Source of the DNA: Bacteroides uniformis
GTDB taxonomy: Bacteria; Bacillota_I; Bacilli_A; RFN20; CAG-826
Reading direction: 5' to 3'
NCBI GenBank assembly: GCA_963641445.1
Contig: CAVIBR010000007.1
Coordinates: 2,525 to 66,524, forward strand
DNA length: 64,000 nt
Under the pieces are notes generated by a model that had not been told where the DNA came from, did not search any database, and worked only from the letters and a program-made list of their open reading frames with translations. This document shows, one piece after another, positions 2,203 to 18,994 of this stretch (its first letter is position 1; every line of letters starts with the position of its first letter). Both the position numbers and the translations under genes were made by a program.

Positions 2203-2543
2203 CGGCCATCCCCTTCCGGCGGCGCGAAGAAATCCAATGGCTCCCCGCCGGAGGTGACGTCGACCTGCTGCCTGGCCTCTCCCAATGCCGATGAGAGCTC
2301 CTTGAGGGACATCCTCTCCGGGTGCTCGAGCCTGTCACCGACCCACGCCTCTATGAGGGCGTCGCCCAAAGACGAGCCATCCTCCCCCTTCGAGGCCAAT
2401 GCGCCCGACAGGGCCTCCCTGAGGCTGAACGCCCCATCGCCCTTGTCCCCCCTCTTGGAGAGGTAGTATTCCTTCCAGTCCTTCCTCATGCTGGCTATAA
2501 TATAACGCCTCAAAAGCCCTTTTTCAAGCGGACTGCGTTGCAT
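2199..2543 (-). CDS. putative terminase small subunit (by position only)
   Basis: 114-aa ORF whose stop overlaps the terL ATG. No motif recognised. An alternative ATG at 2489 is preceded by TTGAAA-17-TATATT. Confidence 0.4.
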   Translation of the reverse strand: MQRSPLEKGLLRRYIIASMRKDWKEYYLSKRGDKGDGAFSLREALSGALASKGEDGSSLGDALIEAWVGDRLEHPERMSLKELSSALGEARQQVDVTSGGEPLDFFAPPEGDGR

Positions 2544-2710
2544 TGCGCAACATTCGCGTCATAATATGCCAGCCAATCCGGGGCGGGTGCCCTTTTCTTT
2601 TGGGAAGGTAAGGGAAGATGAGGGAATGCCTGAAATCATGGGGCGGATTTAGGGGAGGGGCATTGTTTGATGGAAGACCACCCCGCCTGTTCCCCGTGTG
2701 GGGGGTGGGG

Positions 2711-2768
2711 TCCCTCTCCCTCCTTCCTTCTCTTTCCTTCTCCTTTGCCTTCCTTCTTCCTTCCCTTG
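2711..2768. repeat. 58-nt polypyrimidine (CT) tract with a single purine
   Basis: tccctctccctccttccttctctttccttctcctttgccttccttcttccttccctt read directly. ORFs across it translate to low-complexity S/F/L/P strings. Confidence 0.8.
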
Positions 2769-2877
2769 GCGGCGTTTTGGGGCTTCATGCCCTCTTTTTT
2801 TGCTCAAAAACTGCACAATCAAAAGAAAAATAAAGGTTTCATCGTGTAAAGTTCGTTTTTTGGAAAATGAACGATAT

Positions 2878-2910
2878 AAAAAAGCATCTCAGATATTGGC
2901 ATCCGATGCC
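2878..2910 (-). terminator. possible intrinsic terminator (minus strand)
   Basis: On the minus strand reads GCATC-N16-GATGC followed by TTTTTT. The stem is short and the loop long. Confidence 0.3.
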
Positions 2911-2971
2911 TTCATGCGCACGCATCCGCGTTTGTAGACTAATTCAAGATAGTAAATAAATAATATTTTCA

Positions 2972-3017
2972 GTTAACTAGCCATTAATTAACTTACTTTG
3001 TTAACTAATTATTAACT
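2972..3017. repeat. four phased (G/A)TTAACT(A) repeats in an AT-rich spacer
   Basis: TTAACT at 2973, 2988, 3001 and 3012 (11-15 bp spacing), upstream of the packaging genes. Confidence 0.6.
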
Positions 3018-3324
3018 GAGTCTTACTTTTTGACTTAGTTTAGGTATTTTAGTTTTTCGTTTTCTGGCGGCTTCTCTTTTTCTCTCTGGGGTGTGTTCTC
3101 ATGCGCGACTAGCAAATTTAAAGAGAGTGAATAAGTATACCCAAGGAAGTATATATATTTATATCCGCATTCGCTCATATTGCCACATCATCAGTATTTA
3201 ATTTTATGGGCATTGCCATTTAAAAAACTTTTTTTCTTTCTCTTGCTTTGAAATTATCTTAAAAATATTTCTTCGATGTAATCTAGGTTTTTTATGTTTT
3301 TTGAAAGAATTTAATTATTTTCTA

Positions 3325-3354
3325 TTGCGTATGGGGTCAGTATGTGTTTATAAT
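3325..3354 (+). promoter_or_regulatory. sigma-A-like promoter of cassette A
   Basis: TTGCGT (3325-3330), 18-nt spacer, TATAAT (3349-3354), in an AT-rich context. Confidence 0.55.
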
Positions 3355-3393
3355 AATGTCGTTCCCAATGAGAGGAAGAAAGGAGGCGAGCCC

Positions 3394-3447
3394 GTGAAAA
3401 TCTTATTGAGAACGCCCCGCGTAAGTTGCAGGCCTGATTATGGATGA
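3394..3447 (+). CDS. leader mini-ORF A (17 codons, GTG start)
   Basis: AAAGGAGG lies 7 nt upstream of the GTG. Its TGA stop (3445-3447) overlaps the ATG at 3440 of the next ORF (ATGGATGA). Confidence 0.35.
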   Translation: MKILLRTPRVSCRPDYG

Positions 3448-3532
3448 AAAGAAAATCAAGCGCCTAATAATGCTACTCACAATAGCAAAGCTGGCGCTTG
3501 AGATCCTAATTCACATAATTAGTTTAGCCTAA
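3440..3532 (+). CDS. 30-aa amphipathic/hydrophobic peptide A (candidate type I toxin)
   Basis: MDEKKIKRLIMLLTIAKLALEILIHIISLA. No SD of its own, so it appears coupled to the leader. A paralog at 4582-4677 shares 11/21 residues, 7 of them through synonymous codon changes. Confidence 0.5.
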   Translation: MDEKKIKRLIMLLTIAKLALEILIHIISLA

Positions 3533-3549
3533 AAGGCGGGCGGCGTCAA
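3521..3549 (-). promoter_or_regulatory. antisense promoter A
   Basis: The minus strand reads TTGACG (3549-3544), 17 nt, TAAACT (3526-3521). It points back across peptide ORF A. The same boxes and spacing recur in cassette B. Confidence 0.5.
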
Positions 3550-3583
3550 GCGGGGCGGCGCCGTTTCGCTCAACGGGTAAAGG

Positions 3584-3787
3584 ATGCCAAGGAAGAGCAA
3601 GGAGCAGGAAAGGAAAGAGAGACAATACCAGAGGCAAAACGGATGGGCAAAGGAAAACACGAAGAAATACGCTGTTAGACTATCATACATCCAAGACGCC
3701 GAAATGATAGAGTTTCTCGAAAAGAAAGAAAGCAAAGCCGGCTACATTAAAGAATTGATAAAAAAAGACATGGAAGCCAGCAAATAA
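3584..3787 (+). CDS. ribbon-helix-helix-like small DNA-binding protein A (67 aa)
   Basis: Basic N-terminus, then a beta-strand/helix/helix pattern (KKYAVRLSY / DAEMIEFLEKK / KAGYIKELIKKDM). SD AAAGG precedes the ATG. Confidence 0.6.
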   Translation: MPRKSKEQERKERQYQRQNGWAKENTKKYAVRLSYIQDAEMIEFLEKKESKAGYIKELIKKDMEASK

Positions 3788-3939
3788 GAAAACTACCGCA
3801 GACGGTCGCACCCGCAAAGTAAAACCGCACACGGTAGCCAAACGGTGGCAAGCCTGAGCCAGCCCCGGCCAGATTGTACCACCCTAAAAGGAAAGGGGCA
3901 ACAAGAAGCCCCATAGGGGCATGAAAGGACAATCTGAAA

Positions 3940-4416
3940 ATGCTTAGAACGAACTCAAAACAAGTCAACAACAAGATCCGCGAGGCCTTCGCATCCGATG
4001 CGATGGGCTGCGCCGCCGAGTGGGCCGAATGGCTCCAGGAAAGCCCGGAGGATCTCGAGAAGGCCAAGGAGCAAGGGAGATGGGGGACGCTTGAGGCGCT
4101 CGCCATTCTCGCAGGCGTCGAAGGCTCCGAGAAGGGCATAGAGGCCCAAAAGCTCGCCGCCGATTTCATAAAAGAGACGGCAATGAAAGAGAAAGCCTAT
4201 GACGGCGCGCATTGGTCCCCTTCGCTCTTCGCCGAGTGGTGCCAGGGTTTGCCGGGCGCCCTCGACACTGCAAAATGGTACTGCCATAGCGCGATAGATT
4301 ACTGCAAAAGCCTTTTGGAGGAGACGGACGAGGAGGCCTCCAGATACTCCGAGACCGACGCCGAGGAATTGATCACAAATTTATTCTTCAGGGAGATAAA
4401 CAAATTAGCCAGATGA
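3940..4416 (+). CDS. hypothetical acidic protein (158 aa), cargo of cassette A
   Basis: ATG preceded by AAAGGA. Non-repetitive, protein-like composition. No family recognised. Confidence 0.6.
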   Translation: MLRTNSKQVNNKIREAFASDAMGCAAEWAEWLQESPEDLEKAKEQGRWGTLEALAILAGVEGSEKGIEAQKLAADFIKETAMKEKAYDGAHWSPSLFAEWCQGLPGALDTAKWYCHSAIDYCKSLLEETDEEASRYSETDAEELITNLFFREINKLAR

Positions 4417-4442
4417 AAAAACAAGGGGGATAAATCCCCCTT
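4414..4442 (-). terminator. intrinsic terminator oriented for the minus strand
   Basis: 8-bp stem AAGGGGGA/TCCCCCTT with a 4-nt loop. The U-tract (GTTTTTTCA) is present only on the minus strand. Confidence 0.6.
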
Positions 4443-4464
4443 CAAAAGAAAAACAAAATAATCG

Positions 4465-4493
4465 TTGCATAGTAAGCCACTACATTATACAAT
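4465..4493 (+). promoter_or_regulatory. sigma-A-like promoter of cassette B
   Basis: TTGCAT (4465-4470), 17-nt spacer, TACAAT (4488-4493). Confidence 0.55.
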
Positions 4494-4522
4494 GATGCTG
4501 CGAAAAGGAGGGAAAAACCCGA

Positions 4523-4585
4523 ATGATCGCAAGCCGAGGGGCTGACGCACCCAAGGCGCAAAGGGCCGGAGGGATACCCCCATAA
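4523..4585 (+). CDS. leader mini-ORF B (20 codons)
   Basis: AAAAGGAGGG upstream. The TAA stop (4583-4585) overlaps the aligned first codon of peptide B. Its amino acids are unrelated to leader A. Confidence 0.3.
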   Translation: MIASRGADAPKAQRAGGIPP

Positions 4586-4677
4586 GGAAGCCGAAAAAGA
4601 AAACTCTAGAGGCCTTAATAATCGTTCTGACGATAATTAAATTGCTTCTAGAGATCTTCGAAGCTCTTATAGTCTAA
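4582..4677 (+). CDS. peptide B, paralog of peptide A, without a canonical start (aligned start codon is ATA)
   Basis: IRKPKKKTLEALIIVLTIIKLLLEIFEALIV. The frame is open only from 4546 and has no ATG/GTG/TTG. Either a start-inactivated copy or coupled non-AUG reinitiation. Confidence 0.35.
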   Translation: MRKPKKKTLEALIIVLTIIKLLLEIFEALIV

Positions 4678-4699
4678 CCGATTAGGCCCGAGGCGTCAA
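4671..4699 (-). promoter_or_regulatory. antisense promoter B
   Basis: The minus strand reads TTGACG (4699-4694), 17 nt, TAGACT (4676-4671). The spacer sequence differs from A but the length and boxes are conserved. Confidence 0.5.
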
Positions 4700-4797
4700 G
4701 GGGGCGCGAAGCCCCGCCCATAAGGGCAAGGAGGAACCAAAAGACGAAAGACAAGGCGAAAGAGAGGGCGAGGGCCAAGCGCTGGAAGGATAGGAAC

Positions 4798-4935
4798 ATG
4801 ATAAAAATATCCGTGAATCTCAACATAGGGACCAACGCGAGGGATCAAGCCATAGCGGAATGGCTGGAGAGCCAGCCCAGCAAATCCGAGGCGCTCAAGG
4901 ACGCCGCCTACAAGGCACTATCCGAGGAGAAATAA
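4798..4935 (+). CDS. ribbon-helix-helix-like protein B (45 aa from first ATG; homologous frame open from 4678)
   Basis: MIKISVNLN...AIAEWLESQ...EALKDAAYKAL. The upstream in-frame KERARAKRWKDRN matches the N-terminus of RHH A but has no canonical start after SD AAGGAGG (4728-4734). Confidence 0.45.
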   Translation: MIKISVNLNIGTNARDQAIAEWLESQPSKSEALKDAAYKALSEEK

Positions 4936-5059
4936 GAAAAGCGCACCGGTTAAATACCACTCTAAGCGGTGCGCTCACAGGTTGCAAGGAGGCCAAAGCC
5001 CCGAAGCCCCCACATTGTAACCCTAAAAAGCCAGGAGGGGCAACAAAGGAGTTACAGAA

Positions 5060-5350
5060 ATGAGAGAATTAATCATCAAAGACCTTTCCGGGATATTCGG
5101 AAGCTTCAAAGCGGAGGACGTCGCAAAAGCGGTCATAGGCCGCATCGATGAGACCCATATAGCGGAGGGCGAGAGCCTCGAGGACGCCATCAGGGAGGCG
5201 CTAGACGCCGAGATGATATACGACGATGACAAATGGGCGGTGATAGCCAACTACAGCGACCCGGACAGCCCACTATCCTACGCCGAGGCGGAAGAGCTGT
5301 TCTTCGATGACCTCCTCCAATGCGTCGAGGCCCAGGAGATGGGCGACTAG
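5060..5350 (+). CDS. strongly acidic hypothetical protein (96 aa)
   Basis: SD AAAGGAG then ATG. 26 D/E against 7 K/R, counted by eye. Confidence 0.6.
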   Translation: MRELIIKDLSGIFGSFKAEDVAKAVIGRIDETHIAEGESLEDAIREALDAEMIYDDDKWAVIANYSDPDSPLSYAEAEELFFDDLLQCVEAQEMGD

Positions 5351-5359
5351 GGGGACGGC

Positions 5360-5647
5360 ATGATGAAGACCTTAGGGATGAATTACAAGGCCAAGACGGG
5401 GGCGGTCGTCGCCCTCACCCTGGAAGGGGAGGACATAACCGCATTGCACGAGGCGGCATCGGCGATAAGGGCGAAAAAAGTCAGGCTCTACACCGACCCG
5501 GTGGCCGACGAGACCTACCTATGGGGGCGCACGGAATCGGGCATCCGCTTCTCGAGCGAGAATTGCCCGCTCTCCATAACCTGGGGGGTGGCGGAAGGCG
5601 AGGAGAAACCCATCAGGATAGAGGGGCGCATCAGGGTCGGGGGTTAG
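5360..5647 (+). CDS. hypothetical protein (95 aa)
   Basis: Lies 9 nt after the previous stop with a GGGGGA SD-like sequence. Protein-like composition, unlike the Gly/Arg-rich overlapping frame 5320..5691. Confidence 0.55.
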   Translation: MMKTLGMNYKAKTGAVVALTLEGEDITALHEAASAIRAKKVRLYTDPVADETYLWGRTESGIRFSSENCPLSITWGVAEGEEKPIRIEGRIRVGG

Positions 5648-5695
5648 GCGATAGGCCACTCACGATTGAAGGGGCAATCAAGATAGCATAAAAAT

Positions 5696-5726
5696 AAGCC
5701 ATAATAAAATATTATGGCTTTTATTT
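5696..5726 (+). terminator. intrinsic terminator after cassette B
   Basis: 10-bp stem AAGCCATAAT/ATTATGGCTT, 5-nt loop, TTATTT tail. The upstream A-run may make it bidirectional. Confidence 0.7.
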
Positions 5727-5729
5727 CGC

Positions 5730-5758
5730 TTGCATTTTATCGTGCATTGCACTACATT
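5730..5758 (+). promoter_or_regulatory. promoter with operator palindrome of the toxin-antitoxin pair
   Basis: TTGCAT-17-TACATT. The perfect inverted repeat GTGCA-T-TGCAC (5742-5752) lies in the spacer. Confidence 0.5.
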
Positions 5759-5786
5759 AAAGGTGCCATAGCAAGGAGGCAAAAGA

Positions 5787-6008
5787 ATGAACGTGACAAT
5801 AAGGATGAGCGACGGGGAAAGGAAGATAGCCGACTCATACGCCAGATGCGAGGGGATGAGCCTCTCGGAGGCGATAAAGAGGGTTTTCTTCGAGGCCGTC
5901 GAGGAGGAATACGACCTAGCCGAGGCGAAAGCCGTCTCCGAGAGGATCGCCAGCGGGGAGGAGAAAACCTATTCGCTCGATGAGGCGGAGAAGATGCTGG
6001 GATTATGA
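5787..6008 (+). CDS. RHH-type antitoxin (RelB/CopG-like)
   Basis: 73 aa. SD AAGGAGG. The N-terminal beta-strand VTIRMSD plus helices fit an RHH fold. ATGA overlap with the toxin gene. Confidence 0.7.
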   Translation: MNVTIRMSDGERKIADSYARCEGMSLSEAIKRVFFEAVEEEYDLAEAKAVSERIASGEEKTYSLDEAEKMLGL

Positions 6009-6280
6009 CCGGGAAGGAATACCACCCGAGATATTCGGAAAGCGCAATCAGGCAATTGAGGAAGATGGACCGCCAGACGGCGCTTCTGATAACGAGATGG
6101 GTAAGGAAGAACCTTGACGGCATAGCGGACCCAAGGCGGATTGGGAAACCCTTGAAAGGAGGGCTCAACCTCTACTGGCGCTATCGCGTCGGGGACTATA
6201 GGATCCTCGCTGAGATAGTCGACGCCGAGTTCGTGATAGACGTCGTGAAAATCAGCCATAGGAGGGACGTATATGAATAG
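6005..6280 (+). CDS. relE: RelE/ParE-family type II toxin
   Basis: 91 aa. ...LKGGLNLYWRYRVGDYRILAEIVDAEFVIDVVKISHRRDVY is the typical RelE/StbE C-terminal pattern. Confidence 0.8.
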   Translation: MTGKEYHPRYSESAIRQLRKMDRQTALLITRWVRKNLDGIADPRRIGKPLKGGLNLYWRYRVGDYRILAEIVDAEFVIDVVKISHRRDVYE

Positions 6281-10694: not shown

Positions 10695-11347
10695 AATGAA
10701 TCGATCTCCTTGTTCAGTCTTTTGTCCTCCCCGACGTCTCTCTCGACCTCCTCAAGCGCCTTTGCGGGGTCCATGCGGGCGCCGAGGATCTTGCTCCTCC
10801 TGCATAATTCGAGCACCTTGGATGCCTTCCTCCACTCCTGCCTCGCCTCGAGCCACACGACCATCCTCTCGGTGAAGCCGTGGATCTCCTCGATGGTTAT
10901 GGCGGAGCCCCTCCACACGGCGTTCAGGTAGTGGTCCACCCTCTCTAGGCCGTAGCCGTCGGGGCTGTCATCCTCCACGCCTAGCCTATCCAGGCGCCTG
11001 AACAGGTTTTTGGAGGAGAGATACCCCTTATCCTCGATGGGCCTGCGGTCGAACCTGCCCTCCCTTATCTCAGGGGCTATCCTTTTCTCGATGAAGGCGC
11101 ATTTGTGGACGACCGATATCCTCACCCCGTCCAGCCTCTCTTTGAGAAGCGATATGTCGAAGGAGGACCTTCTCCCGGCCTCCTCCACCACCAGCCCGAT
11201 GGCGGCCTCCCTCGTCCTGCGGTCCCTGTCATAGCCGATGAACCCGGCCAAGAGCCCCTGCAAGGCCGCCACATCAATATCCATGTCATCTGGAATATCT
11301 GTGCTATCTACAATATTCGTAGTATTTAAGTTATTAATGTCGCGCAT
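10691..11347 (-). CDS. hypothetical protein downstream of the replisome organizer (possible replication accessory)
   Basis: 218 aa. No Walker motif. Function suggested by position only. Confidence 0.55.
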   Translation of the reverse strand: MRDINNLNTTNIVDSTDIPDDMDIDVAALQGLLAGFIGYDRDRRTREAAIGLVVEEAGRRSSFDISLLKERLDGVRISVVHKCAFIEKRIAPEIREGRFDRRPIEDKGYLSSKNLFRRLDRLGVEDDSPDGYGLERVDHYLNAVWRGSAITIEEIHGFTERMVVWLEARQEWRKASKVLELCRRSKILGARMDPAKALEEVERDVGEDKRLNKEIDSL

Positions 11348-11352
11348 AATGT

Positions 11353-11898
11353 TTACTTACATCCCTTAGGTAACATAGAAGATGGTGGTGGTGATGGCAT
11401 CTGCTCTTTCTTTAATTCTTTCTCTTTATCTAACTCTTTATCTATCTCTATATCTTTCTCTATCTCTATCTCCGTTGAAATTGGTTGAAATTGGGTTGAA
11501 GTTTGGTTGAAATTTTTCAACCTTTTCTTTTCTTTCAATAGGATATTTCGATAAGTCTCGGAACCGATCATCGAGTCGCATTCGATGAGATGGACGTCAT
11601 CCCCTTTCTCCTCCCAGAGCCCACTAGCCTTGAGAAATTGGATCGTCACCCTGACGTTGTCGACCTCCTCGTCGAGCTTGAGGGCGAGCTCCTCCTCGAT
11701 CGTCTTCTCAACGCCTTCGTAGATGATCATGGATCCGTGGTTCATAGCCATGAGGAGCATCTTGAGGTAGATGACCGTGTAGGTGTCCCCTCCCGCTATC
11801 CTCCTGAGCTTCTTGATCCTGGCGTTCTTGAACCAGTTTTTAGGGAGTTTGAGGTAGAAATACTTCCGCTCCTTCTGATATTCATTCCCGTGCGCCAT
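11353..11898 (-). CDS. phage replisome organizer (N-terminal domain family)
   Basis: YFYLKLPKNWFKNARIKKLRRIAGGDTYTVIYLKMLLMA matches the replisome-organizer N-terminal pattern. The C-terminus is low-complexity EIEIEKDIEIDKELDKEKE. Confidence 0.75.
   Translation of the reverse strand: MAHGNEYQKERKYFYLKLPKNWFKNARIKKLRRIAGGDTYTVIYLKMLLMAMNHGSMIIYEGVEKTIEEELALKLDEEVDNVRVTIQFLKASGLWEEKGDDVHLIECDSMIGSETYRNILLKEKKRLKNFNQTSTQFQPISTEIEIEKDIEIDKELDKEKELKKEQMPSPPPSSMLPKGCK
11441..11522. repeat. iteron array (candidate phage origin) inside the organizer gene
   Basis: GTTGAA at 11474, 11484, 11495 and 11506 (10-11 bp phasing) plus an inverted TTCAAC at 11516. Preceded by TCTATC/TCTCTATC repeats in a locally AT-rich stretch. 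Confidence 0.6.
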
Positions 11899-17363: not shown

Positions 17364-17732
17364 ATGGATCAGGAAATGATAGGCGCCCTGATAAAGGGCA
17401 GGAGGGAGGCACTTGGCCTCTCGCAAAGGCAATTGGCGAAAATGGTCGGCGTGAGCAACTCCACCGTAGCGAGATGGGAGAGCGGGGACATAAAGGGACT
17501 GAGGAAGGCCAACATCATCCTCCTATCCGAGAGGCTGTACATATCGGAGGAGACGCTCCTGGGCAAGTGCGAGACCCCCGAGGAGGACATCGAGCTTCTC
17601 AGGATGAGGGCGAGGATGGAGATAGCGCTCCTCAGCATCCACGACATAGGCAAGCTCAACAGGATAATGAAGGAGATCAATAGGATCAGGAAGGAGGCAA
17701 AGGATGGCCAAATACATAAAGAAGACCAATGA
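17364..17732 (+). CDS. second CI-like XRE-family repressor (GC-rich paralog)
   Basis: LSQRQLAKMVGVSNSTVARWESG. About 50% identical to the AT-rich copy over ~60 aa, aligned by eye. Confidence 0.7.
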   Translation: MDQEMIGALIKGRREALGLSQRQLAKMVGVSNSTVARWESGDIKGLRKANIILLSERLYISEETLLGKCETPEEDIELLRMRARMEIALLSIHDIGKLNRIMKEINRIRKEAKDGQIHKEDQ

Positions 17733-18831
17733 GGGGTATGCGATAGACCGCTTCGTGCAGAGGGACGGCATAAGGCTCCACGTCTACAAGGCGGGCTTCG
17801 AGACCATAGCCGACGCCAAGATGGCTATGGGCGATGAGATCGAGAGGGCGTTCGACAAAATGAGGGCGAGCAGGTACGGCGAGAAGACCCTCCGCCAGGT
17901 CTCGGAGGCGTATTTCAGGGACATGGCTGGCAAGAAATCGAGGCAGTACGCCTATGCCATAAGGAAGAAGATGGAGAGGCACTTCCTCCCTGGCTTCGAC
18001 CTTGATGCGCCCGCAAGGAAAGAGCTCACCGAGGAGAAGGTCGCAAGATGGTATGCCCGCTTCTCCTCCCAAAGCTCGCCGAGGGCTGACACGAAGAACA
18101 AGCTCCTCTCGGACGTCAGGAGGTTCATGGAGGGATGCTGGAGGAAGGAGAAGGTCATCTCCAGCGAGGAATACGCCTCGATAATGGGCATCCTCGACAA
18201 CTTCAAGGTATCAAAGGCCCCAGCGCCTGAGAGGGCGGTCTGGGGCGATGATGAGGTGAGGAGGTTCCTTGGCGCATGCGAGAAGGGCTCATCCGAGTGG
18301 GTGATGCTCTCGCTCCTCTTCTACCTGGGCACCAGATTGGGCGAGTTCCTCGCGCTCACGTGGGACTGCGTCGACTGGGCCAACCAGGAGATAAGGATAG
18401 GCAAGCAGATGATAAAGGACGGCGGGTGCATGGTGACGACGGAGCTGAAGACCGGCGCCTCATACAGGAACTGCTATCTTGAGGACTGGGTCGTCGGCAT
18501 GCTCAGGGAATACAAAAGGAAAGAGGGCAACGGGGAGGCCGCCTACCTCTTCCACTCAAAAAGATACCCCAACGGCGAGAGGCCGATGTCCTTCAACGAT
18601 TTCAGGAACGAGTGGGCGAAGGCCGAGAGGAAGGCCGGATTGCCCCATACCACCCCACACAGCGCGCGCCATAGGAAGGCGACGGAGCTGGTGATGCTCT
18701 GCAGGAACGAGGAGGAAGTCAAGGCATCCGCGGAGTTCCTGGGGCACTCGCCGAGCATGATGATGGACGTCTACGCCCACACAAACAGGGAGTCAATCAA
18801 AAATCTCATGGCTAGAAAGGGCCAAAGCTGA
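17704..18831 (+). CDS. int: tyrosine integrase
   Basis: 375 aa. TRLGEFLALTWDCVDW, HSARHRKATEL and LGHSPSMMMDVYAH give the R..HxxR..Y catalytic pattern. Confidence 0.9.
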   Translation: MAKYIKKTNEGYAIDRFVQRDGIRLHVYKAGFETIADAKMAMGDEIERAFDKMRASRYGEKTLRQVSEAYFRDMAGKKSRQYAYAIRKKMERHFLPGFDLDAPARKELTEEKVARWYARFSSQSSPRADTKNKLLSDVRRFMEGCWRKEKVISSEEYASIMGILDNFKVSKAPAPERAVWGDDEVRRFLGACEKGSSEWVMLSLLFYLGTRLGEFLALTWDCVDWANQEIRIGKQMIKDGGCMVTTELKTGASYRNCYLEDWVVGMLREYKRKEGNGEAAYLFHSKRYPNGERPMSFNDFRNEWAKAERKAGLPHTTPHSARHRKATELVMLCRNEEEVKASAEFLGHSPSMMMDVYAHTNRESIKNLMARKGQS

Positions 18832-18950: not shown

Positions 18951-18994
18951 CAGTCAATATCTTCCCTTCCGATTTCCCGCACCAACATTGAATT

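Follow-up and report, generated by a model that had tools for sequence, protein, structure and literature searches.

A conserved small ORF overlapped by a predicted antisense RNA in prophages and chromosomes of uncultured low-GC bacteria: a candidate type I toxin-antitoxin-like module

Introduction

According to T1TAdb (PMC8594479), an antisense RNA embedded in the toxin mRNA is a trait that only Gram-negative type I toxin-antitoxin families show, with Sib alone spanning the entire toxin open reading frame (ORF), and leader ORFs are likewise recorded in Gram-negative families only (Hok/Sok and Ldr/Rdl), whereas in Gram-positive families the antisense RNA overlaps at the 3' end, and in part. 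In Gram-positive type I toxins the N-terminus is usually hydrophobic, and the charged, lysine-rich part is at the C-terminus (PMC6563280). Among the prophage-borne systems, yonT is described in PMC5848175 as the first gene of a polycistronic mRNA, and PMC7699646 reports that a role in prophage maintenance was shown for the C. difficile systems. Outside type I systems, PMC4485353 describes plasmid pMV158, in which the gene of the small repressor CopG is co-transcribed with repB and a short, terminator-ended antisense RNA, RNAII, lies nearby. Here we describe a module of about 225 nt, found in a prophage on contig CAVIBR010000007.1 (assembly GCA_963641445.1), in which a leader ORF, a small ORF (sORF) for a hydrophobic peptide and a convergent antisense promoter are packed together. 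The full stretch of 64,000 nt that was analysed is called the window, and all coordinates are window positions unless another locus is named. On balance, and with moderate confidence, we take the module to be type I toxin-antitoxin-like and to represent a family not yet described.

Results

A conserved sORF for a predicted membrane peptide

The sORF of the first copy of the module (cassette A) runs on the plus strand from ATG 3440 to TAA 3530-3532 and encodes a 30-aa peptide, MDEKKIKRLIMLLTIAKLALEILIHIISLA, which is the candidate toxin. A first-pass annotation of the same DNA had placed a 30-codon ORF lacking a Shine-Dalgarno sequence of its own at 3440-3532, and both the sequence and the ORF list agree with it: just a CAGG is found 10-13 nt upstream of the ATG. 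In the peptide a hydrophobic helix of 22 residues, which includes a K17/E21 pair, follows a charged N-terminus (Eisenberg mean hydrophobicity 0.71, hydrophobic moment 0.30); if translated, the peptide would have the size (under 60 aa) and the hydrophobic, membrane-type character of type I toxins. The sORF is called as a gene in the NCBI metagenome-assembled genome (MAG) GCA_963635605.1.

Two routes, homology to the 67-aa and 45-aa proteins encoded downstream and a peptide-based profile search, led to homologous contigs from NCBI MAGs, ENA and Logan; the assemblies derive from SRR19415658, ERR10140910, SRR13434617 and ERZ15610560. The contigs yielded ten sORF variants: winA, L001A, L032A, L031A, L002A, winB, L001B, L002C, L034 and L035, where winA is cassette A of the window (the near-identical L005A and L041 included), winB is its paralogue, cassette B, and the other copies come from six other assemblies; together they represent about six independent lineages. 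The frame is open in all ten (24-31 codons), every variant has a lysine-rich N-terminus followed by a hydrophobic helix of about 20 residues, and a K/R-x-x-x-E pair inside the helix is present in most. Synonymous differences are enriched in the sORF frame, as judged from winB versus L034 (synonymous pS 0.73, nonsynonymous pN 0.19, Fisher p = 9e-6), L001A versus L032A (pS 0.51, pN 0.17, p = 0.004), winB versus L035 (p = 0.004) and L034 versus L035 (p = 0.03). The remaining frames are closed by stops except the wobble-mirror frame -1, which echoes the synonymous signal because its wobble positions coincide with those of the sORF frame; a minus-strand ORF in frame -1 was rejected, its start and extent being inconsistent among the variants. 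This comparative evidence indicates that the sORF is a real gene under purifying selection, the opposite of the loss of the peptide frame in homologous cassettes that the first-pass annotation had named as a ground for refutation. That annotation had assigned the peptide to no named family; our searches likewise gave no Pfam, NCBIfam, PHROG or PADLOC family matching any sORF variant.

An antisense unit inside the peptide frame

On the opposite strand, a promoter TTGACG-17-TAAACT (3549-3521, minus strand; TTGACG 3549-3544, TAAACT 3526-3521) with a predicted start at about 3514 points back across the peptide frame. It matches the consensus at 9/12 positions and was listed by the promoter scan. 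This promoter, already proposed in the first-pass annotation, is retained in nine of the ten variants in the form TTGAC[G/A/C]-17/18-TAnnnT, the -35 element and positions T1, A2 and T6 of the -10 element being conserved across the variants while the spacers have diverged. The variants include TTGACG-17-TAGACT, TTGACG-18-TATCTT, TTGACG-17-TATATT and TTGACC-17-TATAAT; read from the sequence, the promoter is TTGACG-17-TATCTT in L032 and TTGACA-17-TAAATT in L034 and L035. In L002A the near-consensus TTGACC-17-TATAAT is shifted about 60 nt downstream, and the tenth variant, L002C, has a poor -10 element (TACAAA).

The predicted transcript, the candidate antitoxin, is an RNA of about 70 nt on the minus strand, from about 3514 to 3443, and lies inside the peptide frame. 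It contains a hairpin with arms at 3493-3501 and 3456-3464 and an apical stem, and ends in a U-run (UUUUCUUUU, over 3447-3455) which complements the AAA/AAG lysine codons of the peptide N-terminus, so that the putative antisense terminator and the charged head of the peptide occupy the same bases. For cassette A, the minimum free energy is -28.5 kcal/mol (z = -4.96 against dinucleotide shuffles, as for this hairpin in the other variants), and none of 200 shuffles was as stable. A long imperfect hairpin followed immediately by a U-run (4-6 U) is found on the minus strand in 10/10 variants, with z from -1.9 to -5.0, and we interpret hairpin and U-run as the predicted terminator of the antisense RNA. 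On these sequence signals, an antisense RNA gene complementary to the peptide mRNA is predicted.

RNAalifold found no consensus structure for the ten antisense RNAs; the hairpin is re-registered between types, and for this reason neither a consensus structure nor pair-by-pair covariation is claimed, and per-sequence z-scores and a synonymous-recoding control (peptide fixed, synonymous codons resampled) were used instead. In this control the native codons fold far more stably than the resampled ones in 8/9 variants (sense strand), and for cassette A the z-scores were -3.6 for the sense and -4.2 for the antisense strand, with 0/150 recodings as stable, suggesting that RNA structure is selected in addition to the protein. 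Positions 3250-4800 gave no Rfam match at E <= 10, hits elsewhere in the window being chance hits. The antisense -35 element is itself contained in a conserved plus-strand G-rich element, GGCGTCAAGCGGGGCGGCGCC (3541-3566), and a GTCAAGGGGCGGG-like G-rich element is present in most variants, including standalone loci without the downstream gene described below.

Could an arrangement of this kind be a chance ORF with chance promoter-like hexamers in an AT-rich spacer? Single-sequence statistics are compatible with this: the region holds 6 promoter-like sites where 2.7 +/- 1.8 are expected, the sense -35 element described below matches at 3/6 positions and the antisense promoter at 9/12, and with such weak hexamers one sequence is not significant alone. 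The significance of the cassette A elements derives from their conservation in ten variants, and it is this conservation of all elements, together with the selection signatures, that refutes a chance origin, to which we give practically no weight.

Leader ORF, start overlap and mRNA folding

The sense promoter of cassette A (3325-3354, plus strand) comprises TTGCGT (3325-3330), an 18-nt spacer and TATAAT (3349-3354), as the first-pass annotation had it, with a predicted transcription start at about 3361; alternatively it can be read as TTGCGT-17-TTATAA with a TG one base upstream. It is absent from the promoter scan list because its -35 element matches the consensus at just 3/6 positions. Homologues carry TTGCAT-17-TTTAAT, TTGCGT-17-TTTAAT or TTGTAA-18-TATAAT at the same place. 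The strong Shine-Dalgarno sequence and the 17-codon GTG leader of that annotation are also present on the plus strand: AAAGGAGG at 3379-3386, 7 nt ahead of GTG 3394, and MKILLRTPRVSCRPDYG, from GTG 3394 to TGA 3445-3447. The leader stop overlaps codons 2-3 of the peptide ORF (junction ATGGATGA), and the overlap of leader stop and peptide start that had been noted there recurs in four of six lineages, as ATGGATGA in winA, TAGTG in L001A and L032A, ATGGACCTAG in L031A and ATAA in winB/L001B. Leader ORFs in these four lineages carry their own Shine-Dalgarno sequence and are different in sequence from one lineage to another; L001A and L032A have about 11/22 leader residues in common across synonymous changes, as counted by eye. 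In L002A, unlike the lineages with leader overlap, the peptide ORF has its own Shine-Dalgarno sequence, and L034 and L035 have an upstream ORF that shares the reading frame of the peptide. A frameshift fusion of leader and peptide was considered and rejected upon sequence reading, since the frame offset is +1 in cassette A versus -1 in cassette B and slippery sites are not conserved.

The start region of the cassette A sORF (3434-3442) is predicted to pair with 3514-3522. In L034 and L035 a significant 5'-3' fold-back sequesters the Shine-Dalgarno sequence (z = -5.5 and -4.6).

Cassette B and the portability of the module

A repeat search in which 3520-3554 resembled 4670-4704 (repeat D2), followed by alignment, revealed a second cassette with the same order of parts, and an nhmmer model of the module found just these two copies in the window. 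Cassette B (4465-5060, plus strand; sORF module part 4465-4700) is a paralogue of cassette A with a sense promoter TTGCAT-17-TACAAT (4465-4493, plus strand) and a 20-codon leader on the same strand (MIASRGADAPKAQRAGGIPP, 4523-4585), the TAA stop of which overlaps ATA 4582 (ATAA). Its plus-strand sORF, (I)RKPKKKTLEALIIVLTIIKLLLEIFEALIV (4582-4677), specifies a peptide 43% identical to that of cassette A. The frame has no ATG, GTG or TTG, and the sole candidate start is ATA 4582-4584, 8 nt after GGAGGG; an ATA is likewise the candidate start in L001 and L005, while the L034 and L035 homologues have ATG there. Despite the ATA, the frame is under purifying selection when compared with the ATG-started L034. 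The antisense promoter TTGACG-17-TAGACT (4699-4671, minus strand) is predicted to give a 74-nt RNA (4664 to 4591, minus strand) with hairpin and U-run (z = -3.69).

Several loci show that the unit of about 225 nt is portable and autonomous. In two MAGs (L034 and L035) the module stands alone downstream of hup in the chromosome with its own promoter, no gene for the 67-aa protein or cargo follows, and the next gene differs between the two. In a B-type cassette (L033), precisely the leader, sORF, antisense promoter and G-rich element are missing; the gap, a clean indel of some 225 nt, has AAGGAGG repeats at its flanks, and the promoter reads straight into the gene for the 67-aa protein. In L002 the module is retained in a 1.8-kb remnant of a related prophage between tRNA-Leu and thyA, which contains the sORF, the antisense unit, the gene for the 67-aa protein and a truncated cargo gene.

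Neither blastn of 2500-4500 against phage records nor tblastn of the peptides against phages and plasmids found anything, and the low-complexity filter may contribute to the latter result. IMG/VR gave nothing with the 158-aa cargo protein or with a first degenerate DNA pattern, and the 25 matches of a second pattern were rejected as chance matches, all inside unrelated genes. In JGI metagenomes an alignment of B-type peptides found nothing, and an alignment of the 67-aa protein family found five distant proteins with no sORF module upstream. One locus only was found in the GTDB representative genomes, a profile search of 1.84 billion representative proteins gave two matches, and exact-protein look-ups of window proteins found none on record.

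Position at the head of a prophage operon

Downstream of the cassette A sORF and outside the minimal module, a plus-strand gene (3584-3787) encodes a 67-aa basic protein with a ribbon-helix-helix (RHH)-like sequence pattern, which is probably co-transcribed with the sORF. Its homologues share 59-88% identity and always follow the sORF in prophage cassettes. The protein has no Pfam match, its AlphaFold monomer is one long helix (predicted local distance difference test score 78), and hhalign of the B-type protein against DUF6290 gave a probability of 16%; the RHH assignment is therefore one of sequence pattern, the fold being unconfirmed. Distant relatives of the 67-aa protein (L036-L040), which have the C-terminal motif YIKELIKKDM in common, occur in unrelated contexts without the sORF module. 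The cargo genes of the two cassettes, all on the plus strand, encode acidic proteins of 158, 96 and 95 aa (3940-4416, 5060-5350 and 5360-5647), none of which matches a Pfam, PHROG or PADLOC family.

Both cassettes contain a second antisense unit on the minus strand, placed between RHH-like gene and cargo gene, at 3786-3901 in cassette A (TTGCCC-17-TACAAT with an upstream TG, 3901-3873) and at 4930-5043 in cassette B (TTGCCC-18-TACAAT, 5043-5014). The predicted product is a two-hairpin RNA of about 75-80 nt, with a strong terminator hairpin and U-run directly behind the stop codon that ends the RHH-like gene; conservation of the unit extends to L001, L031, L033 and L002 (z from -1.6 to -3.6).

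This organisation raises the question of whether the module is instead an antisense-controlled regulatory leader for the RHH-like gene and cargo, in the manner of a plasmid countertranscript, with the sORF product irrelevant. The prophage has no terminator between sORF and RHH-like gene, the RNA structure is under selection, and the second antisense unit ahead of the cargo recalls CopG/RNAII of pMV158 (PMC4485353), all of which fits such a role. Against it stand the strong amino-acid-level purifying selection and the conserved hydrophobic character of the peptide; in addition, L034 and L035 carry the module without RHH-like gene or cargo and with different next genes, and L033 keeps the operon without the module; we consider a purely regulatory leader very improbable.

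The prophage extends from position 1 to about 18,990 and has 56-61% GC, while the host chromosome (18991-64000) is low-GC (36%) and Firmicutes-type; among the RNA features of the window are five clustered tRNA genes, a class B RNase P RNA and a thiamine pyrophosphate riboswitch. The mismatch in GC content between prophage and host is unusually large for an integrated phage, and two AT-rich spacers stand out inside the prophage, at 2544-3324 (39% GC) and at about 11300-11600. Genes for an integrase (17704-18831) and the large terminase subunit (367-2202) were identified, and the minus strand encodes RecE/RecT-like proteins, a replisome organiser, a methylase and RusA. The attachment core GATTTCCCGCACCA (18971-18984) adjoins the integrase gene and equals the 3' end of the tRNA-Leu gene in locus L002 (L002 positions 4706-4792). 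An island on the plus strand (3325-6280), inserted between the early genes of the minus strand and the terminase genes, holds both sORF cassettes; it is closed by a plus-strand type II pair (5787-6280), in which a 73-aa DUF6290 antitoxin is joined by a 91-aa ParE/RelE-type toxin, bringing the toxin-antitoxin-like modules of the island to three. A GC-rich hairpin, AAGGGGGATTTATCCCCCTT (4423-4442), flanked by an A-run and, on the opposite side, by a T-run, lies between the cassettes and looks like a bidirectional terminator insulating them. Upstream of cassette A, the spacer at 2940-3050 contains repeated GTTAACTA / TTAACT motifs, and the equivalent spacer in L031 has TTATTG repeats; the repeats at 2940-3050 may form an array of protein-binding sites, or may belong to a packaging or origin region beside the small terminase gene.

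Comparison with described systems

With the predicted antisense RNA inside the ORF, the geometry of the module is nearer to Ibs/Sib of E. coli than to hok/sok, where Sok pairs 5' of the ORF. As in Ibs/Sib, the predicted antisense RNA is opposite the candidate toxin ORF and inside the mRNA (PMC8594479), the peptide is small and hydrophobic, and several paralogous copies exist; unlike Ibs/Sib, the module has a Firmicutes-type host, a leader ORF and a downstream operon. The 30-aa peptide has no family match, and neither Sib nor another antitoxin RNA was matched in Rfam. Ibs peptides have 18-19 aa and no sequence relationship to the peptide described here.

As in hok/mok/sok of plasmid R1 and Gram-negative chromosomes, translation of the candidate toxin frame may depend on a leader ORF upstream of it. 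The fbi element of hok mRNA is a 5'-3' fold-back, resembled here by the fold-back that hides the Shine-Dalgarno sequence in the standalone loci L034 and L035. Unlike mok, which covers most of hok, the leader has only 8 nt in common with the toxin frame, and the predicted antisense RNA (3443-3514) pairs inside the ORF and not with the leader translation initiation region (Shine-Dalgarno sequence and start, 3379-3396). The peptide gave no Pfam or NCBIfam match, even at E <= 10, and is not a Hok/Gef protein.

A prophage site, a small membrane peptide and a convergent antisense RNA are also found in txpA/RatA, bsrG/SR4, yonT/SR6 and CD0977.1/RCd11 of C. difficile with its relatives, and yonT is likewise the first gene of a polycistronic mRNA (PMC5848175). 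The Gram-positive prophage families differ in that their antisense RNA lies at the 3' side with partial overlap (PMC8594479) and in that their toxins have the opposite polarity to the peptide here (PMC6563280); the module resembles them neither in sequence nor in Rfam family. For Fst/RNAII, TxpA/RatA, BsrG/SR4 and SprA1, no Pfam, NCBIfam or Rfam match was found, and the geometry differs (PMC8594479). Because sequence and RNA-family matches are absent, the module is not assigned to hok/sok, Fst, TisB or AapA.

The whole cassette, with its second antisense unit (3786-3901) and small repressor-like gene, resembles CopG/RNAII of pMV158 (PMC4485353); unlike in pMV158, no Rep protein is encoded by the cargo, nothing in the plasmid corresponds to the sORF module, and the RHH fold of the 67-aa protein is not confirmed. 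In its combination of Gram-negative-style anatomy, Firmicutes prophage setting and reverse peptide polarity, the module matches no known family.

Discussion

The comparison of ten variants finds the ORF, the antisense promoter, the hairpin and the U-run conserved and points, at the level of sequence, to selection on both protein and RNA structure. The promoter at 3325-3354 would give rise to an mRNA in which the 17-codon leader, with its strong Shine-Dalgarno sequence, is the first translated unit. Since the peptide frame has no Shine-Dalgarno sequence of its own and its ATG is predicted to be paired with 3514-3522, translation of the peptide would fall solely to ribosomes that finish the leader at its overlapping stop and then restart. 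The convergent promoter at 3549-3521 would drive the hairpin RNA of about 70 nt, fully complementary to peptide codons 2-25, and by analogy with type I systems its pairing would block translation, trigger cleavage of the duplex, or both, so that the peptide is kept off. In the prophage the module heads a moron operon of sORF, RHH-like gene and cargo, and it may stabilise the prophage or act in abortive infection. We infer the production of both RNAs, membrane harm by the peptide and neutralisation by the RNA; a translated sORF with a real antisense small RNA gene is considerably more likely than the type I reading as a whole.

The type I toxin-antitoxin candidate put forward in the first-pass annotation gains support from the conserved frame, the convergent promoter and the leader overlap, and it is still a candidate. 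Several observations weigh against it. Start-codon sequestration in cassette A is marginal (36/500 shuffles equal it) and not universal among the variants, and long-range 5'-3' pairing in the prophage cassettes is no better than in shuffles, so that a fold-back is claimed for L034 and L035 only. Strict pair-by-pair covariation of the antisense hairpin is not demonstrable, and the cassette B sORF has no canonical start. As no sense-strand terminator follows the sORF, in the prophage it is the opening cistron of a longer operon rather than a separate toxin mRNA. The variants were all obtained from a small range of uncultured low-GC genomes, which limits the comparison to about six independent lineages. 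Finally, the charged cluster of the candidate toxin is N-terminal, the reverse of the usual Gram-positive polarity (PMC6563280).

This last point also bears on whether the peptide is toxic at all. A non-toxic small membrane protein, such as a superinfection-exclusion factor or one that modulates a membrane protein of the host, with its dose set by a cis-antisense RNA, would fit the conserved sORF and the antisense evidence equally well, and both an N-terminal charge cluster unlike that of most Gram-positive type I toxins (PMC6563280) and the absence of matches to known toxin families would be in line with it. Layered repression, however, is typical of products that must stay off, and here putative leader coupling, GTG and ATA starts and a predicted antisense RNA across the ORF are joined in the standalone loci by sequestration of the Shine-Dalgarno sequence in a fold-back. 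In addition, sORF and antisense unit were lost together in L033, the module persists in a decayed prophage remnant, and paralogous copies exist. We therefore regard a non-toxic membrane protein as unlikely, although it deserves serious consideration, and retain the type I toxin-antitoxin-like interpretation at the moderate confidence given above.

A more far-reaching and speculative proposal, which we think rather doubtful, is that the unit of about 225 nt is a portable toxic gate between the promoter and the first gene of a moron operon, which, combined with the RHH-like protein and the second antisense RNA, would make up a circuit of three layers that joins type I logic to plasmid-style repressor and countertranscript, tying prophage retention to cargo expression. 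It would then be the first Firmicutes type I family of Gram-negative-style anatomy, in which the ORF contains the whole antisense RNA, a leader ORF is present and the U-tract of the antitoxin terminator is placed in the lysine codons of the toxin.

If the module is confirmed, uncultured low-GC bacteria of gut type and their prophages would contribute a new type I toxin-antitoxin family, and the layout of antisense RNA in the ORF plus leader, hitherto recorded only in Gram-negative families, would cross the usual divide. Some 90 nt would then encode a membrane peptide, fold as a structured mRNA and contain an entire antisense gene, three layers in all. The diverged copies A and B may provide compact regulatory parts, if they are free of cross-reaction. 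As the module may stand by itself in a chromosome, lead the accessory operons of prophages or be cleanly missing, these loci offer a natural test case for its movement and for its role in the prophage, be it maintenance or defence.

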